64,000 nt of DNA from Candidatus Stahliibacteriota bacterium (GTDB lineage Bacteria > Hydrothermota > Tepidihabitantia > B3-TA06). This document shows, one piece after another, positions 5,017 to 43,560 of this stretch. How positions within the stretch are numbered: position 1 is the first letter of the stretch; each line of letters begins with the position of its first letter. The notes under the pieces were generated by a model. It was not told the origin of the DNA and made no database searches. It worked only from the letters and a program-made list of their open reading frames with translations. The stretch spans positions 42,264 to 106,263 of the forward strand of contig SOJW01000035.1 of assembly GCA_004375895.1 (NCBI GenBank), written 5' to 3'. Both the position numbers and the translations under genes were made by a program.

Positions 5017-5026
5017 GACCCTTTAC

Positions 5027-5160
5027 AATAAAAAAGGAAAACAGACTTTCTACCCACGCAGGTGAGAAGTGTGGTAAGGCACATCAGGCCGATACACCAC
5101 TCCCCTAACAGTGCAGATCACCAATAACACCACTTGACGTCTGGGAAAAATATACTTATA
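5027..5160 (+). repeat. Duplicate of the tRNA-Cys upstream/promoter segment (homologous to 6408..6540)
   Basis: Shared block agactttctacccacgcagg...ggtaaggcacatcaggcc...ccactcccc...ttgacg, ending in a -35/-10 that drives the leaderless B3 start at 5171. Confidence 0.6.
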
Positions 5161-5170
5161 CTTCTTGGTT

Positions 5171-6247
5171 ATGAGGCGAAAGAAGAAACTTAAAATTATT
5201 TTCCTGACAATAGGCAGCACCTTGCTTCTTTTAATTTTATCCGTCCTGTTTTCCTACTATTATCTAGTTAGTGATTGGGGTGATAAGAATCGCATTCTGC
5301 CTCCGTTTTATTTTTGGGGTCCATACGCATGGGAGGGGCCATTTGGGCTATTTGTATATGATTATCTTCCGCACCTTTTGAAAGATGCTTATCTCCCGGA
5401 GGAGGTGCCTGAAGATGTGGAAGAAAAATTAGTGGTTCTCCGCGATGGAGAACCGGAAGTAGTTTATGATGTATCCAGGTGGGAACCGGGCGAGCACGTG
5501 ATGCGGTTTTATGCAAGGAGAAGGGAATATGACACCCTGGTGATGACTTCTTTTGATACGGGGGACACGATCCTATATGAGATACGCAAGCTATTCCCCC
5601 AGGAGCAGACTGAATCTGCCACATTGTTTCTTTACCCCTGGCACGGGGAAGATACCATCTCCTATCAGGTTTCGTCTTGGAGTTTGCGGATAAACGGCAA
5701 GCAGGCAGGGGTCCTTTTTCGCCCCATAGAATCAATGTCGTTTCTTCCTGAGGAAAAGATCGAACTTGAATATATCGACGCCCCTACCCAAGGGATAGTC
5801 ACTATTACAATAGAAGATTTTGAACCACCTTTTACAATAAGAAGACTGGAGCGCTTCCCTGACCTGGAGGTAATATTCATGACCCTGTACTTTGAAGATT
5901 ATGCTTACGAGTATTACCGCCGCTTGGCCCCTGAATTGATACGCTACAAAGAGAGGTGCTGGCTTTCCAAGTGGCTCTACTTCAGGGGCCTAAAGCAAGT
6001 GACCGAGATAGCCGATCTTTATCTTTACATCGAGGGAGTGCGCGATGCTGAACTCTGGTTCTTACGTAACTTCACCAAGCTTAAGGGGTTGTGGATCGAA
6101 AGCGACAGCCTCACCGACGCCGGGCTTGCGCACCTAAAAAAACTCTCCGGATTGAGTACGCTTTATCTTTATGGAACAGAGGTAAGCGAGGAGGGGGTAG
6201 CCGAGTTACGGGAAGCCTTGCCGGAGTGTAAGATTACGTTCAGATAA
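5171..6247 (+). CDS. Membrane-anchored protein, cassette family B (paralog B3)
   Basis: ATG at 5171 lies 9 nt after a TTATAC -10 box, so the transcript is leaderless. Has an N-terminal TM helix, LFLYPWHGEDTISYQV, and a C-terminal LRR shared with B2. Confidence 0.55.
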   Translation: MRRKKKLKIIFLTIGSTLLLLILSVLFSYYYLVSDWGDKNRILPPFYFWGPYAWEGPFGLFVYDYLPHLLKDAYLPEEVPEDVEEKLVVLRDGEPEVVYDVSRWEPGEHVMRFYARRREYDTLVMTSFDTGDTILYEIRKLFPQEQTESATLFLYPWHGEDTISYQVSSWSLRINGKQAGVLFRPIESMSFLPEEKIELEYIDAPTQGIVTITIEDFEPPFTIRRLERFPDLEVIFMTLYFEDYAYEYYRRLAPELIRYKERCWLSKWLYFRGLKQVTEIADLYLYIEGVRDAELWFLRNFTKLKGLWIESDSLTDAGLAHLKKLSGLSTLYLYGTEVSEEGVAELREALPECKITFR

Positions 6248-18427: not shown

Positions 18428-18992
18428 TTTGCTGGCAGGATGCAACCTCTTTAATCCCGAAGAGTACGCTGAAGATCTCAACCCCGTGGACTCCATGGCC
18501 GTCTTCCGCAATCTAGTTGACGCCCACAACACACTTGACTACGAGGCGTTCCTTTTATGCCTGGACCCAGCCACCTTCCGCTTCGTTCCGAAAGACACTA
18601 CCCAGGGCACATACTATAAACCGTGGGGCTATGCGGATGAGGACACGTTGACCTCCACCATGTTCAAGGAATTCAAAACCGAACGTCAGATCCCTCCTCT
18701 CCTCCTTCAGGTAGACACGACCTACTTCTCAGCCACAGACACCCTCGCCTACCTGTGTGCAAACTACCTCCTGATTACGCCTCTGAAGGAGTATGACACC
18801 CTTGGCGGAGGATTAGAGTTGGAGATTCTAAAGCGTGGAAACTACTGGTACATATCAACCTGGAAGGACGTAGCAGGCGAAACCCTATTTGTGGAGCACG
18901 AGACAGAAGAAGGCGAGACTACAATAGATACAATCCCCCCGAAGATAACCGAGCATGACTGGAGCGACCTTAAGGTTTACTTCCGCATGTAG
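18381..18992 (+). CDS. Hypothetical lipoprotein
   Basis: Signal peptide with lipobox LLAGC. Confidence 0.5.
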   Translation: MKCLLRLLASSAVLSSLLAGCNLFNPEEYAEDLNPVDSMAVFRNLVDAHNTLDYEAFLLCLDPATFRFVPKDTTQGTYYKPWGYADEDTLTSTMFKEFKTERQIPPLLLQVDTTYFSATDTLAYLCANYLLITPLKEYDTLGGGLELEILKRGNYWYISTWKDVAGETLFVEHETEEGETTIDTIPPKITEHDWSDLKVYFRM

Positions 18993-29296: not shown

Positions 29297-30091
29297 ATGG
29301 GCATCTCTATCTATCAGGTAGATTCATTCACCCAAGATGCGTTCAAGGGCAACCCTGCAGGGGTATGTATATTGGACGCCCCTGCCGATGAGACATGGAT
29401 GCAGATGGTTGCGCGGGAGATGAATCTTTCCGAGACGGCCTTTCTTTATAAGACCGACGACGGTTTCAACCTTCGCTGGTTCACCCACGTGCTTGAGGTG
29501 GACCTGTGTGGTCACGCCACACTGGCCAGTGCCCATGTTTTATTTGAGGAAGGATATCTTAAGCCTCACGAGCAGGCGCGGTTTTACACCAAGAGCGGAT
29601 TGTTAAAGGCAGAACGAAAGGGGGAATGGATCGAGCTTGATTTCCCTGCCGAGCCCGAGACGTCAGCGGACGCCTCTCCTGAGCTTGTCGAAGCGCTTGG
29701 AGTTAAACCTTTATACGTGGGGAAGAACCGGTTCGCCTACCTGGTCCAGGTGGATTCGGAAGAAAAGGTAAGGATGATGAAACCTGACTTTGCGTTGCTT
29801 GCCAAGATTCCAGGATTGGGGGTGATAGTAACCACTCCTTCCGGTTCTCTGGAGTTCGACTTCATCTCCCGATTCTTTGCCCCTGGCGCAGGGATAGATG
29901 AGGACCCGGTAACCGGCTCGGCCCACTGCTGCCTTGGTCCTTTCTGGGGCGAGCGGATGGGTAAAACCGAGCTGGTAGGCTATCAGGCTTCAACTCGCGG
30001 AGGGGTGGTCAGGGTTCGCCTGGCAGGTGATAGGGTCTTTCTAGGTGGCAAGGCTGTTACAGTATTTCGGGGTGAGCTTCTCTCTGTTTAG
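29297..30091 (+). CDS. PhzF-family isomerase-like protein
   Basis: IYQVDSFTQDAFKGNPAGVC...SETAFL...DLCGHATLASAHVL. Confidence 0.85.
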   Translation: MGISIYQVDSFTQDAFKGNPAGVCILDAPADETWMQMVAREMNLSETAFLYKTDDGFNLRWFTHVLEVDLCGHATLASAHVLFEEGYLKPHEQARFYTKSGLLKAERKGEWIELDFPAEPETSADASPELVEALGVKPLYVGKNRFAYLVQVDSEEKVRMMKPDFALLAKIPGLGVIVTTPSGSLEFDFISRFFAPGAGIDEDPVTGSAHCCLGPFWGERMGKTELVGYQASTRGGVVRVRLAGDRVFLGGKAVTVFRGELLSV

Positions 30092-30104
30092 AGCAAGGCC
30101 TGTC

Positions 30105-30560
30105 CTAAAACTCCTTCTGCATCTTACGCATGACCGTGCGATAGCCCAGGGATTCGTAAAGCTCAAGTCCCCTCCTGTTATCCTCGGCAACGGCAAGCTG
30201 GATGACGCTCATTCCCTTGGAACGTGACCAGTCCTCGACGGCATCGATGAGCGCCCTGGCTATCCCTTTCTTCCGCCATAAGGGATCAACGCCCAGAAGG
30301 TCGAAGCTCGCATAAGGACCTTTAACGCAGTCGTCCGAGGAGTGCTCGATCTCGGCATAGGCGAAGCCGACGATTTGAGATCGAGCCTCAGCAACTATCA
30401 AGGCCGCGTCTTCGCTGTGGAGCGCACCCAGAAAGAAACGTTCCCAGAACCCAACCGATCCGGACTCCCCAGACTCTCGGAGTGGATTGACCTGGACGCA
30501 GAGTCTGGCTGCGGCCTGGGTATCTGATTCAGCGGCGGGGCGGATGATCCAGCGACTCAT
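30105..30560 (-). CDS. GNAT-family N-acetyltransferase
   Basis: WRKKGIARALIDAVEDWSRSKGMSVIQLAVAEDNRRGLELYESLGY. Confidence 0.7.
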   Translation of the reverse strand: MSRWIIRPAAESDTQAAARLCVQVNPLRESGESGSVGFWERFFLGALHSEDAALIVAEARSQIVGFAYAEIEHSSDDCVKGPYASFDLLGVDPLWRKKGIARALIDAVEDWSRSKGMSVIQLAVAEDNRRGLELYESLGYRTVMRKMQKEF

Positions 30561-31107
30561 TCTTCCATTTCTGCCAAAAACGCCATATCTCAGGCCGTTC
30601 CAGGAGCCGGGAAAGCTCCTTTATACGCGGATCAAGGTAGTCGAAATCAAGCCTTGATCCTTGCCTTGAAAGAATGGCTCTCACGTCGTCTGCATCCCTC
30701 TGTCTTTCTGATACTATCTTGGTGATAATAAGGTCTTCAGGCCTCGCAAACCTAACAGGCGTACCATGAATCTCAACGTCCACCGCTCGTTCGATGGCTT
30801 CCTTCTCAAAAGGCAGACTGCCGAAGATAAGATCTATACGTACGCCGCCTCTGGCCTGCATGGGTAAAACCGAAGTCTTTTTAACAAAATCTGCTGGATC
30901 AGAAATCAAAGGACTGCAGAGGTTACCCAGAAGCGAGACAATACGCGGCACCTGGGATACTGGAACCCGGATAGTTACGTCTATGTCCAGGGTAGCGCGC
31001 GGCTCACCCCACACCGCGTTGGCTATGCCGCCTATAATCATGTAAGGGATGCCACTCTCTTGCAGGAGTTGAGCGAGCCTGACCAGCGTTTCCTCAAGAG
31101 AACTCAT
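30529..31107 (-). CDS. Nucleotidyltransferase-fold protein (DUF2204/MNT-like small NTase)
   Basis: GIPYMIIGGIANAVWGEPRATLDIDVTI (GS/GG...D.D signature). Start overlaps the stop of the upstream small gene. Confidence 0.55.
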   Translation of the reverse strand: MSSLEETLVRLAQLLQESGIPYMIIGGIANAVWGEPRATLDIDVTIRVPVSQVPRIVSLLGNLCSPLISDPADFVKKTSVLPMQARGGVRIDLIFGSLPFEKEAIERAVDVEIHGTPVRFARPEDLIITKIVSERQRDADDVRAILSRQGSRLDFDYLDPRIKELSRLLERPEIWRFWQKWKNESLDHPPRR

Positions 31108-31355
31108 TATCTCGAACCTTTAAGAACCGCGAGTGCTGTGCGCATAGCGATGATACCCTTGAGTTTGGAGTCGAAGTCCCTTTTACGAGCCTGGAGCGGT
31201 ATAAGGTCGTAAAGCGCTCCGATAGCGGCCAACGCCTGGGCAGGAGACATTTCCACGGGATGTTCTGTCTCCCATTCGGCGAAGCGTTTTAGTCCAGCGG
31301 CCCGCTCAAGCAAACGGCGCTTGTATTCCTTTGCGTCGAGGTTAGATACGGCCAT
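31107..31355 (-). CDS. Small hypothetical protein (82 aa) translationally coupled to the nucleotidyltransferase
   Basis: Upstream partner in an apparent two-gene module. No HEPN Rx4-6H motif. Confidence 0.4.
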   Translation of the reverse strand: MAVSNLDAKEYKRRLLERAAGLKRFAEWETEHPVEMSPAQALAAIGALYDLIPLQARKRDFDSKLKGIIAMRTALAVLKGSR

Positions 31356-33205: not shown

Positions 33206-33305
33206 ATATTCTCATCTCAAAGCATAAAATAATATAGACCAGTCTGAGACTGGTCTATAATCTCTTTTCTCCGATCTTTTGCCGTTTGCGGCAAAGGGAG
33301 GATAT

Positions 33306-33390
33306 AGGGGGCCCCCAAGGTTTTACGAGGTAAAATCTTGGGGTGTAAATTCGGGGTCCCCGCGAGGGTATGAAGTAACCTCGTGGGGTG
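33306..33390 (+). repeat. Two tandem conserved-stem hairpins (GGGGGCCCCCAAGG..CTTGGGGTG and GGGGTCCCCGCGAGG..CCTCGTGGGGTG) abutting the gcvH stop
   Basis: Both have 11-nt loops. Matches the family at 21841, 22447 and 43749. Confidence 0.65.
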
Positions 33391-33810
33391 TTATTTCGCG
33401 TGCTTGGCGATCTCCGTCTTGAGCCAGGTGGCAGCCGCTTCGCCGTGCATCAGAGCGTCAACCTCAGCGGGATCGGCTGGTTTCATGGTAAATATCCAGC
33501 CCGCCCCGTAGGGGTCGGAGTTCACAAGGCTGGGATCGTCCTCCAGCTCGGAGTTCGTCTCAACAATCTCTCCGGCCACAGGTGCGTAGATCTTGCCCAT
33601 CCACTTGCCGGTCTCGTATGAGCCAATCACTTCATCTGCCTGGGCCTCAGAGGAGGTCTCAGGCAGTTCGATGAAGGAGAGCTCACCGGAAAGCTTCTGG
33701 CTGAAGTCGTTGAGGCCAACACGGATAACGTCGCCTTCCTTACGAACCCACATGTGTTCCTTGTGATAGTATAGTTCGTCGGGAAGATTGTATCCTTCTA
33801 TCTCCGCCAT
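33391..33810 (-). CDS. gcvH: Glycine-cleavage H-like lipoyl-carrier protein, stand-alone (LbpA-like candidate)
   Basis: HMWVRKEGDVIRVGL...ETGKWMGKIYAPVAGEIVETN, with the lipoyl-Lys in ETGKW. No gcvT or gcvP nearby. Confidence 0.85.
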   Translation of the reverse strand: MAEIEGYNLPDELYYHKEHMWVRKEGDVIRVGLNDFSQKLSGELSFIELPETSSEAQADEVIGSYETGKWMGKIYAPVAGEIVETNSELEDDPSLVNSDPYGAGWIFTMKPADPAEVDALMHGEAAATWLKTEIAKHAK

Positions 33811-33834
33811 CTTGCCTCCTTAAAGATTGCGATC

Positions 33835-34128
33835 TTACGATATGATGTGCTTTGCTTCTTCGATGAGTGATGTTAACCCATCGTAGTTGACTGTTTTTCC
33901 CTCCGGCGCGGTAAGGCCGCGAGCCGCCAGATCCTCAGCAAGAAACCGGACGGTAACGCCGGCCGATTCCATCTCGGAGAGTTTCCGAGAGAGTTCTTTC
34001 GGCCCCTGCACTGCAAGCACCGCATCCTGGGCAAAGCAGATGGTGTCGCCTCGCTTGGCCAGACGGGCAGCCAGCTGCCACGCCGTGCGCTCAAAGGTAG
34101 AGCGGGTTACGAGATAAAGATTCTCCAT
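33835..34128 (-). CDS. DsrH/TusB-like sulfur-relay protein
   Basis: 97 aa. Position and size match the third gene of a dsrEFH/tusDCB triad. Confidence 0.6.
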   Translation of the reverse strand: MENLYLVTRSTFERTAWQLAARLAKRGDTICFAQDAVLAVQGPKELSRKLSEMESAGVTVRFLAEDLAARGLTAPEGKTVNYDGLTSLIEEAKHIIS

Positions 34129-34136
34129 GCCTCCGC

Positions 34137-34496
34137 CTAATTAAAGGTTATCACGTGGTCGACCGAGGAGATCAACCTACGCAGTTTTTCATCATCTAAG
34201 ACCTCGGCCTCGATACAAGCATCAGGAGAAATACCGTGATCGGCCAGGGACGGGTGGTGAAGGTAAAGCTTTGCCCCGAGCCCTGGTAATTGCGCGTATA
34301 AGTCTACGAGATTATTCATATCGAGTACTTCCGGACTTTGGTTTTTGAGGGCAACCATCACTCCGTCGTCTACAAGGACAACGTGCGTTTGGATTCCCAT
34401 ACTCACGAGACCAATCAATGCGCGGAAACCCTCGCCAGCTGTGGCCATCCCGTAAGGAGCCGAACGGATGAGGACGGCTACCTTCTTTGCTTCCAT
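34137..34496 (-). CDS. DsrF/TusC-like sulfur-relay protein
   Basis: VAVLIRSAPYGMATAGEGFRALIGL, DsrE/DsrF-like fold. Start at the internal Met. Confidence 0.65.
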   Translation of the reverse strand: MEAKKVAVLIRSAPYGMATAGEGFRALIGLVSMGIQTHVVLVDDGVMVALKNQSPEVLDMNNLVDLYAQLPGLGAKLYLHHPSLADHGISPDACIEAEVLDDEKLRRLISSVDHVITFN

Positions 34497-34498
34497 GA

Positions 34499-34849
34499 CT
34501 AGAATCCAAAGGAGAGAAAACGGTCGCACTCCTTGACGTAGTTGGAGAACACGACCATACCCGCAAGTTTTGTGCCTTCAATGATGTCGGTCCTCTTCAA
34601 ACCTCGGAACTTTGCACACGTGCCGCACGCCTTTATCTTTGCACCTTTCTGAGCAAGTTCAGCCATCATCTCGGCAAGGTTACGTTCCTGGGGAGACTGT
34701 ATTTCTTTGTCAAGATTGAAGACCCCGTCTTCGTAGAGAAACATCCTTACCTCGTGCCCCCTGGCCAAAAATCGACTGGCCAGTTGGTAGCAGGTGTCTA
34801 CGTTCTGAGACGTGTAAGGGCCTGTTCGCAGAAGAAAACCGACAGTCAT
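34499..34849 (-). CDS. DsrE/TusD-like sulfur-relay protein
   Basis: FLLRTGPYTSQNVDTCYQLASRFLARGHEVRMFLYEDGV...CGTC. Confidence 0.7.
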   Translation of the reverse strand: MTVGFLLRTGPYTSQNVDTCYQLASRFLARGHEVRMFLYEDGVFNLDKEIQSPQERNLAEMMAELAQKGAKIKACGTCAKFRGLKRTDIIEGTKLAGMVVFSNYVKECDRFLSFGF

Positions 34850-34873
34850 CTATCCATCAGGGTTGAAAGTCCT

Positions 34874-35104
34874 TTAGACCTTTCGACGGATGTAGAATTT
34901 TAATGTATCACCCTCTTCCTCCATACCCAGAAACTCGTTCCCTGTCTGATCGCACCATGCGGGGAAGTCCTCGCGCGCCCCTTCATCGTCGGACAGAACC
35001 TCAAGAACCTCGCTCATATCAACCTCTTTTATCTTCTGGGCGGTCTTGAGCACAGGTATGGGGCAAAGCATCCCTCGCGCGTCAAATGTGTGGTCTTTAT
35101 CCAT
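34874..35104 (-). CDS. tusA: TusA-family sulfurtransferase
   Basis: DARGMLCPIPVLK, the CPxP motif. Confidence 0.8.
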   Translation of the reverse strand: MDKDHTFDARGMLCPIPVLKTAQKIKEVDMSEVLEVLSDDEGAREDFPAWCDQTGNEFLGMEEEGDTLKFYIRRKV

Positions 35105-35130
35105 TTCTGTTCTCCCTCCTACAAACAGAT

Positions 35131-35526
35131 CTAGGTTGCCTCTTTGGGGGGATCGAACTCATCCAAAGCCTGCATCAGGTATCCTATGTATTCAAAAACC
35201 GGCCCGCCGCCCATGGCAAGTGCGATGTTGGCCGCATCCAGGATCTCGGCGCGCGTACACCCCACCTGGACGCAGATCTGGGTATGCAGGTTGATGCAGG
35301 GGCGGCAGTGCTGGACCAGAACTATCGCCAGTTGCATCAGCTCCTTGTACTTCGTGGGTACCGTGCTTTCTTCCTTGGTCTTGCGCCAGAACTGCATGAA
35401 TGCGGCAGCTGCATCACTCGCCTCTCTTCTGTATCTTGCCTGAGCCTTGTTGATCTGGCTCTGTTCTGATTCTTTGGAAAGGTGTGTGTTACGGGTGTGG
35501 GTGTTACTGGGGGTCACGACGGCCAC
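35131..35526 (-). CDS. Carboxymuconolactone-decarboxylase/AhpD-like protein; N-terminus encoded by the GTTACGG repeat
   Basis: CMD-like core ...LVQHCRPCINLH. N-terminal VTPSNTHTRNTH is encoded by the repeat at 35481-35515, so the true start is uncertain. Confidence 0.55.
   Translation of the reverse strand: MAVVTPSNTHTRNTHLSKESEQSQINKAQARYRREASDAAAAFMQFWRKTKEESTVPTKYKELMQLAIVLVQHCRPCINLHTQICVQVGCTRAEILDAANIALAMGGGPVFEYIGYLMQALDEFDPPKEAT
35481..35515 (-). repeat. GTTACGG-type repeat within the 5' end of the AhpD-like ORF
   Basis: ggtgtgtgttacgggtgtgggtgttactggg on the plus strand. Read on the coding strand it gives T-R-N-T codons, as in tatD and the glycosyltransferase. Confidence 0.7.
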
Positions 35527-35750
35527 TCCTCGGCCTTGGCCCGGAGAAGATCACGCAGATTGTCAAGCGAGGAAAGGAGTTCTTCGTCTAAGATATCTGC
35601 ATCTATCTTATCGGGATCGAAGAGCTTGCCGTCAATCTGAAAGGTCATAAGCTCAGGAATCATCTCGGCACCCCTCACCCCTTCCCGTACCAGGAAGAGA
35701 GCGTGCCCTAATGGGATGTCGTCTTCGAACTCAGCCGGCAGGTTTTTCAC
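35514..35750 (-). CDS. Small acidic hypothetical protein
   Basis: 78-aa ORF inside the operon between hdrB and the AhpD-like gene. Confidence 0.35.
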   Translation of the reverse strand: MKNLPAEFEDDIPLGHALFLVREGVRGAEMIPELMTFQIDGKLFDPDKIDADILDEELLSSLDNLRDLLRAKAEEWPS

Positions 35751-36636
35751 TTACAGCTCCGATCCGCTCAAGGATCTTGGTGGGTTTAACACGGTTGATC
35801 TTGAAGCCCAGCTCGTCAGGGGTGTAGCCAAGAGCCAGTCCCAGAAGCTGGGTATAGTAAATGCAGGGCATCGCGAACTTCTGCTCAAGCTCCTTCTCAA
35901 TCTTTTTCTGGTTCTGCTCGTACATCACGTTGCAGAACGGACAGATAAGTATCATCGCCTCGGAGCCTGAATCCTTGATGCTAGCCAGTTTCTTGCCCGC
36001 CATGGCGTAAGCCACGTCCACCCGAATACCGAGTATGGCACCGCCGCAGCAGAGTTCCCGCTCCGAGTATGGATTGCTACGAGCGCCGGTGGCGTTGATT
36101 AAATCGTCGTAGACGTGGGGATTTTCGGGATCATCGAAATTCTCGAACGCCTCGGATGGTTTGAAGAAGTGGCATCCGGGGTGGGCGGCTACTGGTAAGG
36201 ACTGAAGATCGACCTTGACCTCTTGTTTGATGCGCTCGATCCCGATGTCCTCATATAGTACCCGGGCGAAGTGGCGGACGTTTACTGTACCCTTGTATTC
36301 CAGGTCTTCCTTTTTGAGGATCTCATTGACCTGGGCCAGCTTCTTGACATCGTGCTTCAGCTGGTGATTGGCTTCCACCTGTGTGCCTGTGCACGCGGTG
36401 CATAAAGTGACCATGTCCAGCCCCTGCTTCTCGGCCAGGGCCAGATTGCGGGCGGCCATGACTAAGGAAGAGCGCTGATCCACGGATTTGATAGGGAAGC
36501 CGCAGCAGGTAAAGGAGGGGATGTCAACGAGCTCGATACCGAAGTGCTTGGCGATAAGTCGGGCGGAGAGCTCGTAGTTCTGCGCGCGAACAGGAACGGT
36601 GCAGCCCAGATAGAGGGCGAACTTCTTTTTACTCAT
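35731..36636 (-). CDS. hdrB: Heterodisulfide reductase subunit B-like (two CCG domains)
   Basis: KKFALYLGCTVP...CCGFPIKSV, plus a second Cys-rich CCG-type domain (CPFCNVMY). Confidence 0.85.
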   Translation of the reverse strand: MSKKKFALYLGCTVPVRAQNYELSARLIAKHFGIELVDIPSFTCCGFPIKSVDQRSSLVMAARNLALAEKQGLDMVTLCTACTGTQVEANHQLKHDVKKLAQVNEILKKEDLEYKGTVNVRHFARVLYEDIGIERIKQEVKVDLQSLPVAAHPGCHFFKPSEAFENFDDPENPHVYDDLINATGARSNPYSERELCCGGAILGIRVDVAYAMAGKKLASIKDSGSEAMILICPFCNVMYEQNQKKIEKELEQKFAMPCIYYTQLLGLALGYTPDELGFKINRVKPTKILERIGAVSEKPAG

Positions 36637-37255
36637 CTTTGCTTCCCTCAGGTTTAGTTGTAGCTCCTGCGTCGGCATCGGTGGATGCACTGCCAGCCTC
36701 TTTTGCTTCGCTGGAGTATAGGTACAGACCGGTGGCCTTGAAGATGGTCTTTATGGGATCGGGTGATTCGGTAAGTTCGGGCAGTTCTATCTTGGCCCGC
36801 TTCTTGTTGACGAACGCATCCGCTTCATACAGTCTGCCGTGTCCTTGAATTAAATCTATCTGTGCGGTGAACGCGGGATGGATGTAGCCGTTCTTCACGG
36901 CAAGGTTCTTCAAAGCGTTCATCATCTCGGTGATACGCACGTCCTGTGGACAGCGCTCGTGGCAGGCATAGCAGGTCGAGCAGAGCCAGACGAACTCGGA
37001 TGCCAGGACCTGTTCCTTCATACCCAGCAACGCCATGTGGATAATGCGTCGGGGGTTGAAGGTCTCCTCGATTGAGCGGACCGGACAGGATGCGGTGCAG
37101 GTTCCGCACGCATAGCACCGGGTGATGAACTCCCCCGAAGGCTCGGCCTGAATCTCGTATTTGAAGTTGGGGTCTAATTCATCAAATTTGATCACTTTCG
37201 GTTCCTTGGCCTTGGTGACCTCATCAACCGCTTCCGCGTCTTGGTTTTCGTTCAT
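36629..37255 (-). CDS. hdrC: Heterodisulfide reductase subunit C-like (2x[4Fe-4S] ferredoxin)
   Basis: CYACGTCTASCPV and CSTCYACHERCPQ. Confidence 0.8.
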   Translation of the reverse strand: MNENQDAEAVDEVTKAKEPKVIKFDELDPNFKYEIQAEPSGEFITRCYACGTCTASCPVRSIEETFNPRRIIHMALLGMKEQVLASEFVWLCSTCYACHERCPQDVRITEMMNALKNLAVKNGYIHPAFTAQIDLIQGHGRLYEADAFVNKKRAKIELPELTESPDPIKTIFKATGLYLYSSEAKEAGSASTDADAGATTKPEGSKDE

Positions 37256-37289
37256 GACCTTATCTTCTTCCAAAATTTCTCCACAATCT

Positions 37290-38162
37290 CTAATACTCGT
37301 GGGGCAGGCCTTCGAGTTGGTCGAGGGAAAATACCGGCCCATCTTTACAGACATAATAAGGACCAATGTTGCAGCGGCCGCACTTGCCTATCCCGCACTT
37401 CATCCGGCGCTCAAGAGATGTGTAGATCTGATCGGGTTTGAACCCCAGCTTGGTTACCACCGGCAGGGTGTAGCGGATCATTGCAGGCGGCCCGCACATG
37501 AGAAGAAACGCGTTATCGGGGGATGGAGCGATTTGTTGAGTGACTGTCGGAACGAATCCGACCAGACCGCCCCACCCCTGGGACTCGGTGTCCACGGTCA
37601 GGTGGATGGGCAGATCGTCGCGCTTGGACCACTCGGCAAGCTCGTCTTTATAGAGCAGCATCCCCGGGGTGCGCGCACCGTAGATAACGGTAACGTCGGC
37701 GTAGTCTGCGCGATGCCCGTCAAGAAGCCAGCGGATGACCGACCGCAGGGTGGTGAACGCGAACCCGCCGGAGACGATCACCAGGTTATGCCCCTTGTAC
37801 TTCTCAAGGGGATACCAGTTGCCCAACGGCCCGCGCATGCCGATCGGAGTGCCGACTTCAAGCTGGTGCATGGTGTTTGTGACCAAACCAGCGCGATTTA
37901 CGGTGAAGCGCACGTAGTCTTGCTCGGTGGGTGCCGACGCGATACCGAAAGGCGCTTCACCCTTGCCTAAGATAGAAACCTCGCAGAACTGACCGGGCAG
38001 AAACTGGAAAGATTCCTTGTCTTCGGGGTCTACGAACTCCAGGTCAAACGTCTTAAGCATCCCGTCCTCGGACTCCACACGTATATCTTTGATTCGCATG
38101 GGCACAGGCAGGTAAGGATTCGAGCGCTTGAAGAAAAGCTTCACCGCAGGAGATTGTTCCAT
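37290..38162 (-). CDS. FAD/NAD(P)H-binding oxidoreductase with a C-terminal [2Fe-2S] cluster (PyrK/AsrB/HydG-like)
   Basis: FLPGQFCEVSILG..PFGIAS (FAD), GGFAFTTL (NAD), CGIGKCGRCNIG. Confidence 0.8.
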   Translation of the reverse strand: MEQSPAVKLFFKRSNPYLPVPMRIKDIRVESEDGMLKTFDLEFVDPEDKESFQFLPGQFCEVSILGKGEAPFGIASAPTEQDYVRFTVNRAGLVTNTMHQLEVGTPIGMRGPLGNWYPLEKYKGHNLVIVSGGFAFTTLRSVIRWLLDGHRADYADVTVIYGARTPGMLLYKDELAEWSKRDDLPIHLTVDTESQGWGGLVGFVPTVTQQIAPSPDNAFLLMCGPPAMIRYTLPVVTKLGFKPDQIYTSLERRMKCGIGKCGRCNIGPYYVCKDGPVFSLDQLEGLPHEY

Positions 38163-38373
38163 TAGGGCTGATTATAGGAAAATGAGCATAGATGTCAATG
38201 AGGAAGAGTCCTTAAGTCAGGTTTGAGTCCTACTCGTCAGGTTTGAATGCAATTCGGCGCATTTTTTGCGCGAAATTTGACGGTTTTGGGGGAATGGAAG
38301 GCCGGATAATGTTTCGGAAACACATATTGACAATAGAATATACTTCCTTACACTATTCTTAGAAGGAGGTTTT

Positions 38374-39021
38374 ATGCAAAAGAAAATACACCTCATCACC
38401 CTCTCACTTATCCTTATCGGAGGGATATGGATGACCCGCTGCGTATCCCCTTACTACGGCACGGCAAGGATAGAGCCGGGATGGCAGCTTGATACCGGTC
38501 TAGGACTGCATACCACCCTGATTCCGGTGCTTGACGGTGGTGACCCCGTTTATGGTGTCGGCATACGCTGCGACGGTGAAATAGGTTACGGTTTGGATAA
38601 GTACGTAAAACCCTACGCGAGAGCTGCGCTGGGCCTTAACACAGCCTACATAGGATACGCGGACATTGGTTTAGGCCTTCAAGTGGCTCTGCCGGTATGG
38701 ATATTCACCCCTGCGGTAAAACTTGAGATCAACTCCACTTGGATACAGCCCACCTTTTCCCCGGTCGTTCTATTAGGAATTGGCAAAAGTGAGTGGGTTA
38801 CCCTTGGGGCTAAAACCTATTTTTTCCCCTTCGCTGATTCGAACTACCCCAGATTTCTGGACGTATTTACCACCGTCCACATCTCTCCCCGCTGGTCAAT
38901 ATTCGCTGGTGCCGAGATTAACTCCTTCATTGATACCTTCGAAGACGGCAACGGCTACCCCTTCTTCACGGTGGGGGCTGGTTACAAGTTCCCGCCCTTC
39001 CGAGGCAAAACAAGGATTTGA
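38374..39021 (+). CDS. Hypothetical small outer-membrane protein
   Basis: Signal peptide and beta-strand pattern. Confidence 0.45.
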   Translation: MQKKIHLITLSLILIGGIWMTRCVSPYYGTARIEPGWQLDTGLGLHTTLIPVLDGGDPVYGVGIRCDGEIGYGLDKYVKPYARAALGLNTAYIGYADIGLGLQVALPVWIFTPAVKLEINSTWIQPTFSPVVLLGIGKSEWVTLGAKTYFFPFADSNYPRFLDVFTTVHISPRWSIFAGAEINSFIDTFEDGNGYPFFTVGAGYKFPPFRGKTRI

Positions 39022-39159
39022 GGATTTGAGCAAGGTAGTGGCGACTCAGGGCCTGCCCCTTGAGATGTTGTACATCTCATAGGGTATGAGTCGCCACTAC
39101 AGATTCCGCGTAATCTGCGGTTTTCATTGCTCCTTTTGGGCGTAGCTCAAAAGGAGCAT

Positions 39160-39738
39160 CTACCAAACGTACCGCAAGCCTATGCCTACTCCGGGCGAGG
39201 CGAAGAAGTAGGGTTCATTGTAGTAATCCCTGCCATAGTAAGACCGCGAAGGCCGTGAATAGAAGCCAGCCTGAAGCTCTGGGGTAACGGAAAGCCACCT
39301 GTCCTTGCCCATCTTGAAGAGGAGCCAGTCAGCTCCCACAATAAAGGCGGTGGAAAGACCCCATTTTGTCTCCAGTGACCACCAGTCCCAGTAATCTTCA
39401 TACTCATAGTCATCCCAGTCTTCAAACCACCCTTTAACATACCATGCGCCCACCCCCGCACCCAGATAAATCCTGAATCGGTTATCCGGGTTCACGATCT
39501 TAAGGATGCGCAGCGCACCGGCCATGTGGTAGGTGGAAGAGCCGGTCTGAGGGTTATCAAACCTTCCGCGGGCCACGATCTCAAAACCAAAGCCCTTCTC
39601 TGAAAGAAGCCGATAGGCAAGGCCTTGTCCAAGGAAGTCGGCCTGCATGCCGATACCCTGTTCAGCAAGGAGGGGCGTGCCAAAGCCGCCAAGCAGCAAA
39701 GAAACCACCATCCCCTTGAGTGCAAGGGTTCTGAACAT
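39160..39738 (-). CDS. Small outer-membrane beta-barrel protein (OmpA-like 8-strand barrel type)
   Basis: Signal peptide, ends ...GLRYVW. Confidence 0.55.
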   Translation of the reverse strand: MFRTLALKGMVVSLLLGGFGTPLLAEQGIGMQADFLGQGLAYRLLSEKGFGFEIVARGRFDNPQTGSSTYHMAGALRILKIVNPDNRFRIYLGAGVGAWYVKGWFEDWDDYEYEDYWDWWSLETKWGLSTAFIVGADWLLFKMGKDRWLSVTPELQAGFYSRPSRSYYGRDYYNEPYFFASPGVGIGLRYVW

Positions 39739-39746
39739 CTCCCCAC

Positions 39747-40307
39747 CTACCAGTTATAGCTTATCCCGAAACCAATATCAGGGAACCAGAAGCGAGTTTC
39801 TGCTTCCTCGAAGGTCCCGTAGGCACTGGAACTCATATCGCGTCTGTAAAGGAATCCGGATTCGAGCTCGATCCGGAACCTGTCAAGACCTTGATCCTTG
39901 TCTTTGACAAGGATCTGCATAAGGATCTGCAAAGGAGCTATACCGGCTCCCACGTAGATACGTCCACCCAATCCAATATAGCTGCTGGATCCGTAGATCT
40001 CGCCCGTGCTGCCGAAACCCAGCCCGACGTAGGGTGAAAACCACTCGTCCTGTGAGAACATCACCCCGCCCCTGAGGCCGGCGCTGTAGAATATATCCTG
40101 ACCGCCTTCATCGTAGGTAAACACCCCGATACCGTGAGGGGCCACGAACAAAGCAGCCTGCTCCTTTAGCGGGACAAACAGGCGGAACTCAAGCCCGCCC
40201 GAGACCGGATCAACCCTGCCGCCGAATCCGAAACGATAGGATGCCGCGGCAACCGCAGGGATAAGCAATGTGCACACAACGAGTGCAATGGTTATTCTTT
40301 TCAACAT
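39747..40307 (-). CDS. Small outer-membrane beta-barrel protein (paralog-like)
   Basis: Signal peptide MLKRITIALVVCTLLIPAVAAA, ends ...GISYNW. Confidence 0.55.
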   Translation of the reverse strand: MLKRITIALVVCTLLIPAVAAASYRFGFGGRVDPVSGGLEFRLFVPLKEQAALFVAPHGIGVFTYDEGGQDIFYSAGLRGGVMFSQDEWFSPYVGLGFGSTGEIYGSSSYIGLGGRIYVGAGIAPLQILMQILVKDKDQGLDRFRIELESGFLYRRDMSSSAYGTFEEAETRFWFPDIGFGISYNW

Positions 40308-40441
40308 GCACGCCTCCTTTTCAATAAGGTAACTATAAGGCTGAACCTGGAAGTTGTCAATACCCCCATCCCGCGCAACCACCAGAGGGGAATCAAAGCA
40401 AGGAGTCTACAAGAAAATACGTCGTGTTTCTTTGGGGTAAA

Positions 40442-41146
40442 TTAAAACCTGAACGCAGTGGAAAGCCCGAACTCCGGATAGAACACTACCCCGTTGGAGG
40501 TCGAACCGAAAAGGATGTTCCAATCCAACCCGGTTCCAAAAAGCCAGCTGAAGCCTTCGGTGTGCACCGCCGCAACTGCGAATCCGAAGTTTAATCTCAT
40601 CCCCATACGGTGCTCCTTCACGTAGTCAATAGCCATCCTGTAGTCGTTGACCAGTATCTTGATGTCCTCAAGCGTGAGGGTATTTATGTACTCCTCGACC
40701 TTAGCCTGGGTTGCCGCCGGGATGAACCAGTTGTTTGTAAACTGGAATCCAAGCGGGAAAAGCACCCTGTCGTTGGCCGCTGAAAAGGATTTCTGCAACC
40801 CCCACGCCCACTGCACGTGCACGTAGGGAATATCCTGAGTGGCGTCGATATCCAAAGGATAGTAAGGGATGTTCTCGATGTGTCCTTTTGCGGTGTAGTT
40901 CTTGTAGTGGACGTTTAGATCTACTGCAAATCCAATGGAGCGCTCGTCCTCAAGCGAAAGTCCGATGTGGAAGAATCCCGGCGGTGGGATGCCTGGCCTT
41001 GAGACCTCCACATGACACCCGGAGTTGGGGTTGGTATAGTCCGCGGAATCAGCACCGATATTGTAAAGCCCTGCGCTGTATCCCAGATCCAGCCCGAACT
41101 GCCAGGGGGCGGAAATAAGAACTAACGATACAATCAAAGCATTCAT
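40442..41146 (-). CDS. Outer-membrane beta-barrel protein
   Basis: Signal peptide, ends ...STAFRF. Confidence 0.5.
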   Translation of the reverse strand: MNALIVSLVLISAPWQFGLDLGYSAGLYNIGADSADYTNPNSGCHVEVSRPGIPPPGFFHIGLSLEDERSIGFAVDLNVHYKNYTAKGHIENIPYYPLDIDATQDIPYVHVQWAWGLQKSFSAANDRVLFPLGFQFTNNWFIPAATQAKVEEYINTLTLEDIKILVNDYRMAIDYVKEHRMGMRLNFGFAVAAVHTEGFSWLFGTGLDWNILFGSTSNGVVFYPEFGLSTAFRF

Positions 41147-41321: not shown

Positions 41322-42722
41322 TCACCATTTACCGGTCGTCAGATACTCGTGCATAGAGCGGGCGGCTTTGCGGCCTGCGCCCATGGCTAATATCACGGTG
41401 GCCGCACCGGTCACGATGTCCCCGCCGGCCCACACAGCCTTCTTGGTGGTCTTGCCGGTCTCTGCATCGGCCACGATGTAGCCCCACTTGTTAGTCTCAA
41501 GACCGGGGGTGGATGAGGGAACCAGGGGGTTGGCCCCATTGCCGATCGCCACCACCACCGTGTCCACGTCCATCTTGTACTCCGAGCCTTCGATTGGTAC
41601 CGGCCTGCGGCGGCCGGATGCGTCCGGTTCACCCAGCTCCATCTTTAAAAGCTCAACCTGCTTCACGCGCCCGGCCTCGTTGCCTATGTAGCGCACAGGG
41701 TTGACCAGGAAGTTGAATATGACCCCTTCGTCCTCGGCGTTCTCAATCTCTTCGTCACGGGCGGGCATCTCCTTGCGGCTACGGCGGTAGATGATGTGGG
41801 CCTCCTTGGCTCCTAACCGCAGGCTGGAGCGAACCGCGTCCATGGCCACGTTCCCGCCTCCTATTACTATCACACGCTCACCCACCCGGATTGGGGTGTC
41901 GTACTCAGGGAACAGATAGGCCTTCATCAGGTTGATGCGGGTAAGGTACTCGTTCGCCGAGTAGACCCCGACCAGGTTCTCGCCCGGTATGTTCATGAAC
42001 CATGGAAGCCCTGCACCCAGACCAAGGAAGCAAGCCTCGTATCCCATCTCGAAGAGCTCGTCCACCGTAGCGGTACGGCCGACCACGAAGTCAAGCTTGA
42101 GTTCCACGCCTATCTTTTCTAGTATTTCGCACTCGCGCGCCACGATCGCCTTGGGCAGACGGAACTCGGGGATGCCGTAAACCAAAACGCCGCCAGGTTT
42201 GTGCAGCGCTTCGAATAACGTTACCTTGTGTCCCAGCCTGGCCAGGTCCGCTGCCACGGTGAGTCCGCCCGGACCTGAACCGACCACCGCGACCTTGTGA
42301 CCTGTTGGCGGTGCGACCTCTGGCACAGCCATCTTGCCCTCTCTTATCTCCCAGTCGGCAACGAAGCGCTCCAACCGCCCTATTGCGACCGGCTCAAAGC
42401 GTTTAGAGAGAACACAAACTATCTCGCACTGCTCCTCCTGGGGGCAGACACGTCCGCAAACACCGGGCAGAAGGTTGGTCTCGCGTATCTTGGCCAGAGC
42501 GCTCTCGAAATCTCCTTCTGCTACGAGCTCGATGAATACGGGAATATCTATCTCCACCGGGCAGCCCTCTATACAGAAGGGCTTCTTGCACTGGATGCAG
42601 CGCTCGGCCTCCTTTTGGGCAAGTTCGGCGCTAAAGCCTAATGCCACTTCGTTGAAGTTGCGGATACGCTCTTTTGGTCTCTGCTTGGGCATCGCCTGTC
42701 GGGGTATCTTGGTATCAGGCAT
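41322..42722 (-). CDS. NADPH-dependent glutamate-synthase beta-chain-like oxidoreductase (NfnB/SudA)
   Basis: Two N-terminal Cys clusters (CIQCKKPFCIEGCP; CGRVCPQEEQCE). FAD and NAD Rossmann motifs VAVVGSGPGG, VIGGGNVAMD. Confidence 0.9.
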   Translation of the reverse strand: MPDTKIPRQAMPKQRPKERIRNFNEVALGFSAELAQKEAERCIQCKKPFCIEGCPVEIDIPVFIELVAEGDFESALAKIRETNLLPGVCGRVCPQEEQCEIVCVLSKRFEPVAIGRLERFVADWEIREGKMAVPEVAPPTGHKVAVVGSGPGGLTVAADLARLGHKVTLFEALHKPGGVLVYGIPEFRLPKAIVARECEILEKIGVELKLDFVVGRTATVDELFEMGYEACFLGLGAGLPWFMNIPGENLVGVYSANEYLTRINLMKAYLFPEYDTPIRVGERVIVIGGGNVAMDAVRSSLRLGAKEAHIIYRRSRKEMPARDEEIENAEDEGVIFNFLVNPVRYIGNEAGRVKQVELLKMELGEPDASGRRRPVPIEGSEYKMDVDTVVVAIGNGANPLVPSSTPGLETNKWGYIVADAETGKTTKKAVWAGGDIVTGAATVILAMGAGRKAARSMHEYLTTGKW

Positions 42723-43560
42723 CTTGTGCCCCTACCGCGGCCTGGTAGCGTTCGAGCGAGATCTTTTCTTCTTCCTTGAAGGAGGCCAGACGTTTTAAGA
42801 GCAGATCGAAGTTCACCTTGTGGCCGTCGAACTCCGGTCCGTGCACGCAGGCGTAGCGGGTCTCACCGCCGACCTCTACCCGGCAAACCCCACACATGCC
42901 GGTGGCATCTATCATGATTGAGTTGAGCGAGACCATCGTCTTTATGTTATAGTGGCGGGTCAAATCGCACACCGCCTTCATCATGATGGCAGGGCCTACA
43001 GCGATGATCTCGGCGATGGGACGACCTTTTTCCAGGTGATCTTTGAGTTCTGTGGTTACGAACCCTTCGCGGCCGTAGGTGCCGTCGTCGGTGGTGACGT
43101 AGACCTCGTCTGCAAAGGAGCGGAACTCCTCTTCCAGGATCACGATGTCCTTGGAGCGATAACCGAGAATGGCGATCACCTTGTTGCCCGCTTCCTTGTG
43201 CTTGCGGGCGATGGGCAGGACTTCGGCTGAGCCTACGCCGCCAGCGATGGCGAACACCTCGCCGTCAAGTTTTTCGATGGGTGTAGGATTACCAAGTGGC
43301 CCAATCACGTCGGCTATCTCGTCACCGGCATTCATTCGCCCCATCTGGAATGTAGTCTTACCCAGCTCCTGCACGTAGACGGTGATGGTTCCCGCTTGCG
43401 CGTCCGCGTCAGCGATAGTGATGGGGATGCGCTCACCCTTCTCATGCAACCGAAAGACAACGAACTGACCGGGCTGCCGCTTTTGGGCAATGATGGAAGC
43501 CTCGATTACAAAGCGATTTACCTCGGGATTTACGCGTTGGCGCTCAACGATACGGAACAT
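42715..43560 (-). CDS. Ferredoxin-NADP+ reductase-like small subunit (NfnA/SudB, PyrK family)
   Basis: FAD/NAD-binding fold and C-terminal CGVCRVEVGGETRYAC [2Fe-2S]. Translationally overlaps the NfnB-like gene. Confidence 0.85.
   Translation of the reverse strand: MFRIVERQRVNPEVNRFVIEASIIAQKRQPGQFVVFRLHEKGERIPITIADADAQAGTITVYVQELGKTTFQMGRMNAGDEIADVIGPLGNPTPIEKLDGEVFAIAGGVGSAEVLPIARKHKEAGNKVIAILGYRSKDIVILEEEFRSFADEVYVTTDDGTYGREGFVTTELKDHLEKGRPIAEIIAVGPAIMMKAVCDLTRHYNIKTMVSLNSIMIDATGMCGVCRVEVGGETRYACVHGPEFDGHKVNFDLLLKRLASFKEEEKISLERYQAAVGAQDA

Follow-up and report, generated by a model that had tools for sequence, protein, structure and literature searches.

We analysed a 64,000-nucleotide stretch of DNA (hereafter the window) from Candidatus Stahliibacteriota bacterium (assembly GCA_004375895.1, contig SOJW01000035.1, positions 42,264 to 106,263 of the forward strand), in which a compact minus-strand operon at 33391-38162 joins genes for a heterodisulfide reductase (Hdr) module to genes for sulfur trafficking. 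The operon has ten co-directional genes in the order flxA-like, hdrC, hdrB, a 78-amino-acid (aa) orphan, an AhpD-like CxxC protein gene, tusA, dsrE, dsrF, dsrH and gcvH, and it lacks hdrA. We tentatively propose, with somewhat less than even confidence, that it encodes a soluble, non-bifurcating, NAD(P)H-linked Hdr-type disulfide reductase, which has lipoyl-GcvH as its partner and reduces sulfane sulfur bound to TusA and DsrEFH to sulfide. The parts are all from known families, and the operon belongs to none of the systems it resembles, namely sHdr-LbpA, Flx-Hdr with DsrC, and DsrEFH-to-DsrC.

Each family assignment was backed by both Pfam and NCBIfam, in agreement with the gene content given in an earlier note on this DNA, although that note had counted eleven genes. 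Upstream of flxA lies a sigma-70 consensus promoter (38171-38198, minus strand; TTGACA-16 nt-TATAAT, 12/12 match) that ends 8 nt before the flxA ATG, and an intrinsic-terminator-like hairpin with a 12-bp stem and a T-rich tail (33233-33259, minus strand) follows 130 nt after the gcvH stop. Hairpins are also present after gcvH in relatives, and the aldehyde dehydrogenase gene downstream of gcvH has its own promoter (11/12 match). Comparison with relatives placed the likely true starts of HdrC, HdrB and DsrF at 37255, 36636 and 34496, respectively, and with these starts the gene overlaps or gaps are 2-34 nt throughout, matching those in the relatives. On these signals, the ten genes are predicted to form one transcription unit between promoter and terminator; bounded in this way, the operon would therefore work without an adjacent HdrA. 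Because the consensus promoter ends just 8 nt before the ATG (TATAAT-cagcccta-ATG), the flxA mRNA is probably leaderless or nearly so, implying that the first gene has no Shine-Dalgarno sequence. As a separate observation, the spacer between gcvH and the aldehyde dehydrogenase gene (33260-33390) contains several GC-rich hairpin-forming repeats around GGGGACCCCG / CCCCACGAGG…CCTCGCGGGG; similar repeat units occur in the same spacer of two related loci (L008 and L009; L numbers denote the loci compared), and they may be an intergenic element resembling repetitive extragenic palindromes (REP-like).

The earlier note had suggested checking whether the gene order is conserved, and the identical ten-gene order was found in the independent WOR-3 (Stahlbacteria) assemblies L001, L002, L008, L009 and L010. 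The sequence of L007 ends after hdrB, and some relatives insert one or two DsrE2/DsrE3-like genes between tusA and dsrE. The window HdrB is 85-93% identical to sequences from WOR-3 metagenome-assembled genomes (MAGs), and the window GcvH matches, at 100% identity, a protein assigned by name to a Candidatus Stahlbacteria (WOR-3) MAG. Given that the order is repeated in these five assemblies with the promoter conserved, we judge from the sequences that it is not due to chance. Furthermore, both promoter hexamers and their 8-nt distance from the ATG are identical in L001, L007, L008, L009 and L010, indicating that the operon truly starts at flxA. In six independent assemblies the promoter abuts flxA and hdrA is absent from the operon, so the lack of HdrA described in the earlier note was upheld. 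We had also considered that an assembly artefact might hide hdrA; this was ruled out by the six concordant assemblies together with the conserved promoter before flxA. A search of the 64 kb for HdrA matched only the NfnB-like protein, weakly and as itself, and no hdrA, second hdrBC, hdrB3, etf, flxBCD, lplA, gcvT/P, dsrAB or dsrC/tusE was found within the window. Neither the window nor the WOR-3 relatives have a homologue of FlxB, FlxC or FlxD (MvhD). The aldehyde dehydrogenase, an NAD(P)H-producing enzyme, is a conserved downstream neighbour of the operon in relatives.

The first gene encodes a 290-aa FlxA-like NAD(P)H flavoprotein (37290-38162, minus strand) with the Pfam domains NAD_binding_1, FAD_binding_6 and DHODB_Fe-S_bind, the last a [2Fe-2S] domain of PyrK type. 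Sites for flavin adenine dinucleotide (FAD) and NAD(P) are present, and the C-terminal [2Fe-2S] motif reads CGIGKCGRCN...C. Its best NCBIfam matches are hydrogenase/sulfhydrogenase gamma subunits and AsrB, and among solved structures it comes closest to 9nez_C, the gamma subunit of P. furiosus sulfhydrogenase I, which binds NADPH (E 9.5e-54). An NAD(P)H flavoprotein is thus encoded here, as the earlier note had stated; however, it does not sit in place of HdrA but is the FlxA that precedes HdrA in full clusters (E 1e-122 against that of L005). The second gene encodes HdrC (36629-37255, minus strand; 208 aa from the ATG at 37255; TIGR03290, 114 bits), a 4Fe-4S dicluster protein with two CxxCxxCxxxCP motifs. 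In alignments, the WOR-3 FlxA has an N-terminal extension and the WOR-3 HdrC has N- and C-terminal extensions that are absent from their counterparts in HdrA-containing clusters. The third gene (35731-36636, minus strand) encodes HdrB, which is 301 aa long when read from the ATG at 36636. Its two CCG domains are complete (Pfam CCG x2; CX31-39CCX35-36CXXC) and provide ten cysteines for two non-cubane [4Fe-4S] clusters. All ten CCG cysteines align with those of a methanogen HdrB (9sfi_C, E 1e-71) and also with 8rvu_b. We do not call the protein a coenzyme B-coenzyme M (CoB-CoM) enzyme, since its TIGR03288 score (275 bits) is below the equivalog cut-off of 345.

In a rough neighbour-joining tree, the HdrBs of the HdrA-less WOR-3 operons, together with that of L003, were sister to the Flx-Hdr clade, and methanogen HdrB fell outside both. 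The loci L005, L006 and L115, with about 58% HdrB identity, carry a complete Flx-Hdr cluster: a protein of about 1480 aa resembling HdrL/NfnB, MvhD/FlpD, the two Fe-S proteins FlxB and FlxC, FlxA, an HdrA of 917-950 aa, HdrC and HdrB. This is followed by the same kind of tail, namely CMD, TusA, three or four DsrE-family genes, DsrH and GcvH. FlxB, FlxC and FlxD (MvhD) are present in L005, L006, L030, L115 and L036, and L030 has the Flx-Hdr part without the sulfur-relay/GcvH tail. Since the HdrB is sister to Flx-Hdr HdrBs that carry the same tail and the FlxA is orthologous, the simplest reading of these sequences is that the operon is a trimmed relative of Flx-Hdr, in which hdrA, flxBCD and hdrL would have been lost and flxA left abutting hdrC. 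The operon shares with the Flx-Hdr of Desulfovibrio and other anaerobes, whose proposed substrate is DsrC, an FlxA-type flavoprotein, HdrC, HdrB and a protein-borne dithiol partner. However, it has no HdrA, FlxB, FlxC, FlxD (MvhD) or HdrL-like protein, and hence no site for flavin-based bifurcation, and the place of DsrC in the operon is taken by the AhpD-like protein, TusA, DsrEFH and lipoyl GcvH. As an observation on a Desulfobacterota locus, the Flx-Hdr cluster of L017 runs hdrC-hdrB-hdrA…mvhD-flxB-flxC-flxA and is followed directly by dsrC (18216-18524), a position that mirrors the sulfur-relay/gcvH tail of the WOR-3-type clusters.

The last gene (33391-33810, minus strand; Pfam GCV_H, 132 bits) encodes a lipoylatable H-protein whose lipoyl-lysine lies within GSYETGKWMGKIYAP. 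This lysine aligns with K64 of E. coli GcvH, to which the window protein is 44% identical. The lysine is embedded in GSYETGKW(M/L)GK(I/L)Y, which is ETGKWMGK in the window, rather than in the canonical ES(V/T)KA(A/V)SD, and we refer to such proteins as KW-type. When 90 distinct H-proteins were placed in a neighbour-joining tree, the 21 of KW type formed one clade with no canonical member inside. The window GcvH is at most 44% identical to canonical H-proteins, as compared with a median of 58% within the KW-type clade. It contains no cysteine at all, as do 15 of the 18 tabulated KW-type open reading frames (ORFs); the single cysteines of the other three (L008, L036 and L040) occur in uncurated stop-to-stop ORFs.

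The genomic neighbourhoods of the KW-type genes also differed from those of canonical gcvH. For this comparison, KW-type counts were restricted to loci found via GcvH itself, and the control loci were the canonical gcvH loci returned by the same metagenome scan for KW-type GcvH, whose generic DPYG-GW pattern favoured canonical gcvH. Among the matches listed, Hdr, Flx, CCG or TusA/DsrE neighbours were present at 9 of 16 KW-type loci and at none of 67 canonical loci (Fisher p = 1.5e-8, calculated for 9/15 against 0/68; L034 was later found to be KW-type, which barely alters the test). Conversely, 21 of the 67 canonical genes in that set were beside gcvT, which was not nearby in any of the KW-type loci. 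Three short KW-type contigs show lplA rather than Hdr or sulfur genes; lplA adjoins KW-type gcvH in L114, L034, L035 and L037, and is about 4 kb away in L036.

The KW-type gene occurs in varied company. It closes a full Flx-Hdr cluster with its tail in L115, follows hdrL-mvhD-flxB-flxC-flxA in L036, and stands in hdrC-hdrB-CMD-gcvH in L116 and in hdrA-hdrC-hdrB-gcvH in L117. In L039 it accompanies a GlcD-like flavoprotein and a TfrB-like Fer4+CCGx2 protein, in L083 it lies in tusA-gcvH-dsrE3-like, and in the WOR-3 locus L118 it lies in sm78-tusA-dsrE-dsrF-dsrH-gcvH-aldehyde dehydrogenase, sm78 being the 78-aa orphan. HdrB (or another CCG protein) and KW-type GcvH are thus a recurring pair, found in two distant HdrB clades, and around it the module for electron input, the AhpD-like protein and the sulfur relay are all exchangeable in these arrangements. 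Two Aerophobetes-like loci combine KW-type gcvH with fumarase and hdrCBA: L114 (8511-17537; fumarase-gcvH-lplA-hdrC-hdrB-hdrA, an Fe-S protein and a TfrA-like flavoprotein) and L033 (971-6561; gcvH, fumarase, hdrA-hdrC-hdrB). The best NCBIfam match of the TfrA-like flavoprotein is the thiol:fumarate reductase TfrA, below cut-off. The contexts in L114, L033 and L039 hint at a lipoyl-GcvH-dependent analogue of the CoM/CoB thiol:fumarate reductase of methanogens.

A related association has been reported in Culexarchaeia, where Ehe hydrogenase clusters include gcvH among HdrB/HdrA2B2C2 genes and the authors suggested that GcvH carries the unknown disulfide of HdrB (PMC9723716). The archaeal context is however a membrane-bound [NiFe]-hydrogenase, and an NAD(P)H flavoprotein, an AhpD-like protein and TusA/DsrEFH are not part of it. 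The paper on 'DsrEFH type II' describes tusA/yeeE synteny, and its main text has neither GcvH nor HdrB. Our literature search found no paper on FlxA-HdrCB-AhpD-TusA-DsrEFH-GcvH or on a KW-type GcvH clade; most subscription journals were outside its coverage, and an earlier description is possible.

The earlier note had regarded the operon as a minimal relative of the sHdr/LbpA system, and this kinship was not borne out. The sHdr-LbpA systems of Hyphomicrobium, Aquifex and Acidithiobacillus likewise link HdrB/HdrC to TusA, DsrE-family proteins and a GcvH-like lipoyl carrier, and in its sulfurtransferases (TusA and DsrEFH) the operon agrees with them. However, sHdr is recognised by syntenic shdrC1B1AHC2B2 (type I) or by shdrC1B1AHB3 with etfAB (type II) (PMC11094781). 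The operon contains one hdrC and one hdrB, and neither it nor the window contains an hdrA-like gene, hyp (sHdrH), a second hdrCB, hdrB3 or etf (etfAB). The sHdr maturation genes, sLpl(AB) and LipS1/LipS2, are also absent from the window, in which no radical-SAM homologue (LipS-type maturation) was found. Moreover, LbpA has an N-terminal and a C-terminal cysteine, both strictly conserved, that are absent from GcvH proteins, and the LbpAs studied are 26-35% identical to E. coli GcvH (PMC6067878). By this published signature and these published identities, the cysteine-free window protein is set apart from LbpA and is closer to true GcvH; the LbpA-type signature for which the earlier note proposed to look is not there. 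The solved-structure matches of the window GcvH include no LbpA. The operon further differs in carrying DsrEFH and not DsrE3B/C, in an HdrB that is sister to Flx-Hdr HdrBs in the rough tree, and in having anaerobic fermenters as hosts.

Between hdrB and gcvH lie the AhpD-like gene, the relay genes and the orphan. The AhpD/CMD-family protein (35131-35526, minus strand; Pfam CMD) has the CMD fold and the CxxCxxxH motif (HCRPCINLH) of the AhpD family. It scores 32.1 bits against TIGR00778 ahpD_dom (cut-off 27.8), and its best solved relative is the AhpD 5dik (E 1.3e-14, CxxC aligned). A role in selenium handling was set aside for the operon, since the weak NCBIfam matches to YedF and to AhpD-type selenoprotein families all scored far below cut-offs. 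The CxxCxxxH motif is kept in L001, L003, L005, L008, L009, L115 and L116. In M. tuberculosis, electrons pass from NADH through Lpd, DlaT and AhpD to AhpC, with AhpD reduced by protein-bound dihydrolipoamide (PMC12028322). Because this lipoamide-to-AhpD transfer is known, an AhpD-fold protein beside a lipoyl carrier is biochemically coherent.

The relay consists of TusA (34874-35104, minus strand; Pfam TusA, 86 bits; Cys-Pro-x-Pro) and subunits of DsrE/TusD type (34499-34849, minus strand; Pfam DsrE, 91 bits; CGTC), DsrF/TusC type (34137-34496, minus strand; 119 aa from the ATG at 34496; DsrE family; TIGR03010, 63 bits) and DsrH/TusB type (33835-34128, minus strand; Pfam DsrH; TIGR03011, 60 bits, above cut-off). 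The CPxP cysteine of TusA and the CGTC motif of DsrE are conserved among the aligned loci, and the DsrE CGTC cysteine is a candidate persulfide carrier; DsrF has no conserved cysteine, and the single cysteine of DsrH is not conserved among relatives. In Dsr organisms, DsrEFH passes sulfur to DsrC, which has been proposed as the substrate of Hdr/DsrK. Neither the window nor any cluster-bearing locus contains a homologue of DsrC/TusE, and here dsrH is always followed by the lipoyl-type gcvH, with a dsrH-gcvH junction of 10-40 nt that is kept down to 58% HdrB identity. The DsrC/TusE queries were validated by their match to L017, where the control query finds DsrC directly after FlxA. The relay resembles the TusA-DsrEFH-DsrC relay of the reverse Dsr pathway of Allochromatium vinosum and the TusA-TusBCD-TusE relay of E. 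coli in having TusA followed by a DsrE/F/H heterotrimer-type set with a conserved DsrE cysteine. In contrast to both, it has a lipoyl H-protein where DsrC/TusE would stand, a DsrH cysteine that is not conserved, and no DsrAB or MnmA context.

The orphan sm78 (35514-35750, minus strand) is an acidic, cysteine-free protein with no Pfam or NCBIfam match. A search of 5.8 billion protein clusters gave eight homologues, every one of them from this WOR-3 clade; when 1.84 billion representatives were searched with a profile, 3 clusters only were returned and no remote family emerged. Its AlphaFold2 model, based on an 8-sequence alignment, had a predicted local distance difference test score (pLDDT) of 46, too low for a usable structure. 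The homologue in L118 (8319-8555, 65% identical) directly precedes tusA in a locus without Hdr and without the AhpD-like gene, indicating that sm78 travels with the relay and not with Hdr. The idea that sm78 is an Hdr adaptor replacing HdrA is weakened by the same observation. At the junction of sm78 and the AhpD-like gene, we also observed a repeat of varying length. In L008 (3172-3747) the frame entering the AhpD-like gene encodes a long degenerate RNTP/NTPR peptide repeat that arises from a short tandem DNA repeat, and the window (~35480-35526) shows only '…TPSNTHTRNTH…'.

All cofactor and active-site motifs are intact, including the ten CCG cysteines of HdrB, the two ferredoxin motifs of HdrC, the [2Fe-2S] motif of FlxA, CxxCxxxH of the AhpD-like protein, CPxP of TusA, CGTC of DsrE and the lipoyl-lysine of GcvH. 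From these parts we infer all of the electron- and sulfur-transfer steps that follow, as well as their direction and the order of the AhpD-like protein and GcvH. The FlxA-like subunit (FAD, [2Fe-2S]) would be reduced by NAD(P)H and would pass electrons to the two [4Fe-4S] clusters of HdrC, which would pass them on to the two non-cubane [4Fe-4S] clusters of HdrB. HdrB would then reduce the dithiolane of lipoyl-GcvH, and dihydrolipoyl-GcvH would discharge the Cys-persulfide of TusA and DsrE as H2S, either directly or via the AhpD-like CxxC protein. The net reaction would be NAD(P)H + S(0) -> NAD(P)+ + H2S, and no bifurcation is expected because there is no HdrA in the operon. The unit would thus act as an Fe-S analogue of dihydrolipoamide dehydrogenase coupled to a persulfide reductase, in which lipoyl-GcvH would hold the place of DsrC, after DsrEFH and before Hdr/DsrK. 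NAD(P)H would be supplied by the downstream aldehyde dehydrogenase; as a parallel to this neighbour, Ramos and colleagues reportedly linked the Desulfovibrio Flx-Hdr to ethanol in 2015. Similarity to FlxA (for the gamma subunit) and the same proposed net reaction connect the operon with the Pyrococcus sulfhydrogenase and with NAD(P)H-dependent reductases of sulfur or persulfide. Unlike those systems, the operon lacks the subunits of a hydrogenase, and its predicted catalytic site is a non-cubane Fe-S/lipoyl one instead of a flavin-CoA or Ni-Fe one. The role might be that of a cytoplasmic electron sink for a fermentative anaerobe or that of persulfide detoxification. The host phylum is anaerobic and fermentative, and its sole isolate, sy37, which has neither psr nor dsr, respires S(0) in a way that its authors called unknown (PMC12285271, PMC12542636). 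The suggestion of the earlier note that this is a reductive or persulfide-handling variant not previously described is consistent with the evidence.

Several points weigh against this proposal. The lipoamide, persulfide/sulfide and NAD(P)H couples all lie near -270 to -320 mV, so that the direction of electron flow could go either way. To our knowledge, there is no precedent for direct transfer from FlxA to HdrC without FlxBCD and HdrA, and for the full Flx-Hdr clusters the potential of a lipoyl disulfide seems too low for the high-potential acceptor that a bifurcating HdrA needs. The window GcvH scores above the NCBIfam cut-offs for GcvH (NF002270, 136.7 against 117; TIGR00527, 121.6 against 115.85), and L001, L002 and L010 carry a bona fide gcvT (453 bits; cut-off, 300) 2.5 kb downstream, so that a glycine-cleavage role keeps some probability. 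With no lipoate ligase within the 64-kb window, the lipoylation of GcvH stays a prediction. The pairing is also imperfect: L003 has only HdrC-HdrB-small ORF-CMD, with no GcvH on its 9.6-kb contig, and L118 has the relay and gcvH with no Hdr within 10 kb.

The alternative that survives best, which we consider unlikely, is that the chain runs in reverse and is biosynthetic. H2S would attack the lipoyl or AhpD disulfide to form a persulfide, the sulfane sulfur would pass to TusA/DsrEFH for thiolation (tRNA 2-thiouridine, molybdenum cofactor, thiamine or Fe-S clusters), and HdrCB-FlxA would re-oxidise the dithiol with NAD(P)+; plain TusA-TusBCD tRNA 2-thiouridine synthesis is included here. The near-isopotential couples fit this alternative as well, as the chain could run both ways. 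The best NCBIfam matches of DsrE, DsrF and DsrH are TusD, TusC and TusB, with DsrH above the TIGR03011 cut-off, and the order TusA-DsrE-DsrF-DsrH equals that of tusA and tusDCB in E. coli. Many anaerobes, moreover, take up sulfide directly for assimilation. However, TusD and TusC scores are well under their equivalog cut-offs (53 against 89 and 63 against 94, respectively), and neither TusE/DsrC, the acceptor of the Tus relay, nor MnmA is present in the window or in related loci. In addition, the relay is optional and modular, being absent from L116, L117 and L114, and the DsrE2/DsrE3-like paralogues of L001 and L115 represent an expansion; neither feature is expected of a housekeeping tRNA modification relay.

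A still less probable explanation is that GcvH is an ordinary glycine-cleavage H-protein, that FlxA-HdrCB is a non-homologous L-protein (dihydrolipoyl dehydrogenase), and that the sulfur-relay genes have a separate job. Besides the above-cut-off scores and the downstream gcvT in three relatives, this explanation gains from the best solved relatives of the window GcvH, which are true H-proteins, and from the Hdr-GcvH pairs without a sulfur relay in L116, L117 and L114. On the other hand, GcvH does not group with canonical H-proteins although it matches their models and has the lipoyl-lysine; it belongs to a clade of its own, and the flanks of its lipoyl-lysine differ sharply from the canonical motif. 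The neighbourhood counts speak in the same direction, with no canonical locus by Hdr and no GcvH-found KW-type locus near gcvT among the matches listed, as does the conserved dsrH-gcvH junction. No glycine riboswitch or other regulatory RNA was found within the window, nor was gcvT, and no gcvP was seen. The earlier note had named two findings that would overturn its view, an adjacent hdrA and a GcvH clustering with canonical H-proteins that have gcvTP as partners; neither adjacency nor clustering was observed, and only the gcvT of the three relatives tells the other way.

It is improbable that the operon serves as a thiol-peroxidase or antioxidant system, in which electrons would flow from NAD(P)H through FlxA-HdrCB and lipoyl-GcvH to the AhpD-like protein, reducing hydroperoxides or a peroxiredoxin, as an Lpd-free copy of the mycobacterial Lpd-DlaT-AhpD-AhpC chain. 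No protein accompanies this HdrB clade more constantly than the AhpD-like one (L003, L005, L115, L116 and the WOR-3 loci), and the operon resembles the mycobacterial chain, which provides the lipoamide-to-AhpD precedent (PMC12028322), in that a CxxCxxxH AhpD-fold protein is combined with a protein bearing a lipoyl domain and with a reductase that depends on NAD(P)H. In S. aureus, the lipoyl carrier GcvH-L favours resistance to oxidative stress (PMC12440151). However, the reductase is an Fe-S Hdr module and not Lpd, which is a flavoprotein disulfide reductase, AhpC is lacking, no peroxiredoxin was found in the operon or window, and the four co-transcribed sulfur-relay genes with conserved active cysteines, whose products are the likely clients, would be left unexplained. 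Finally, oxidation of TusA/DsrE-delivered sulfane sulfur to sulfite on the lipoyl carrier, with electrons passing to NAD(P)+ as in an sHdr-like system, is the least probable of these alternatives and very improbable in itself, since the same kinds of parts (HdrBC-type, TusA, DsrE family and a GcvH-like lipoyl protein) are present but the defining gene set, the LbpA cysteines and the sLpl/LipS genes are all absent, the HdrB is of the canonical or Flx-Hdr type, the hosts live by anaerobic fermentation, and no sulfite-handling genes occur near the operon.

The remaining window is mostly housekeeping, including PPDK, PolA, MetK, AhcY, Asd, M23 peptidases and others. The NfnAB/SudAB-like pair reported in the earlier note was confirmed at 41322-43560. 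Between it and the operon lie four small genes (38374-41146; 192-234 aa) whose products terminate in aromatics (…YVW, …YNW, …FRF) and, by eye, look like outer-membrane beta-barrels; in L030, an OMP_b-brl gene adjoins hdrB. On the other side of the operon, relatives (e.g., L002 10231-12084) have the aldehyde dehydrogenase followed by DUF2284 and the bona fide gcvT. The window has no gcvT at the corresponding place (29297-31355); from the aldehyde dehydrogenase to DUF2284 we recognised by eye a PhzF-like ORF, an acetyltransferase-like ORF and two small ORFs, and metK and ahcY come after DUF2284. At the start of the window (25-6247, plus strand), a run of six ORFs (224-361 aa), none with a Pfam match, falls into paralogue sets: 3967-5016 and 5165-6247 are 54% identical, with 1026-1781 a more distant relative of both, and 25-924 and 1968-3053 are 39% identical. 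Several of these ORFs show signal-peptide-like N-termini.

Hdr complexes are widespread in non-methanogenic bacteria, yet a disulfide substrate has been established or proposed for them only where DsrC is present, in sulfate reducers, or, in the sHdr system of sulfur oxidisers, LbpA. The operon and its relatives offer a testable candidate substrate in bacteria without DsrC, namely a distinct clade of lipoylated H-proteins. In a wider form, which we put forward as a possibility and hold with clearly less confidence than the proposal for the operon itself, KW-type lipoyl GcvH would be the missing 'bacterial heterodisulfide', that is, the dithiol/disulfide substrate of HdrB and related CCG proteins in anaerobes that have neither DsrC nor CoM/CoB (WOR-3 and Aerophobetes), and the WOR-3 operon would encode a new cytoplasmic NAD(P)H:sulfane-sulfur oxidoreductase. 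If this is true, FlxA-HdrCB would serve in it as an Fe-S 'lipoamide dehydrogenase', with the AhpD-like protein, TusA and DsrEFH as the sulfur-delivery arm. FlxA, HdrC, HdrB and GcvH form a minimal system of four proteins, which should be much easier to reconstitute than the bifurcating Flx-Hdr. For annotation, gcvH in such genomes should not automatically be read as glycine cleavage, nor hdrBC as CoM-CoB chemistry. For the organisms, the operon is a candidate cytoplasmic route for sulfur reduction or persulfide detoxification in WOR-3, and the oxidoreductase, if real, could explain S(0) reduction in this phylum.

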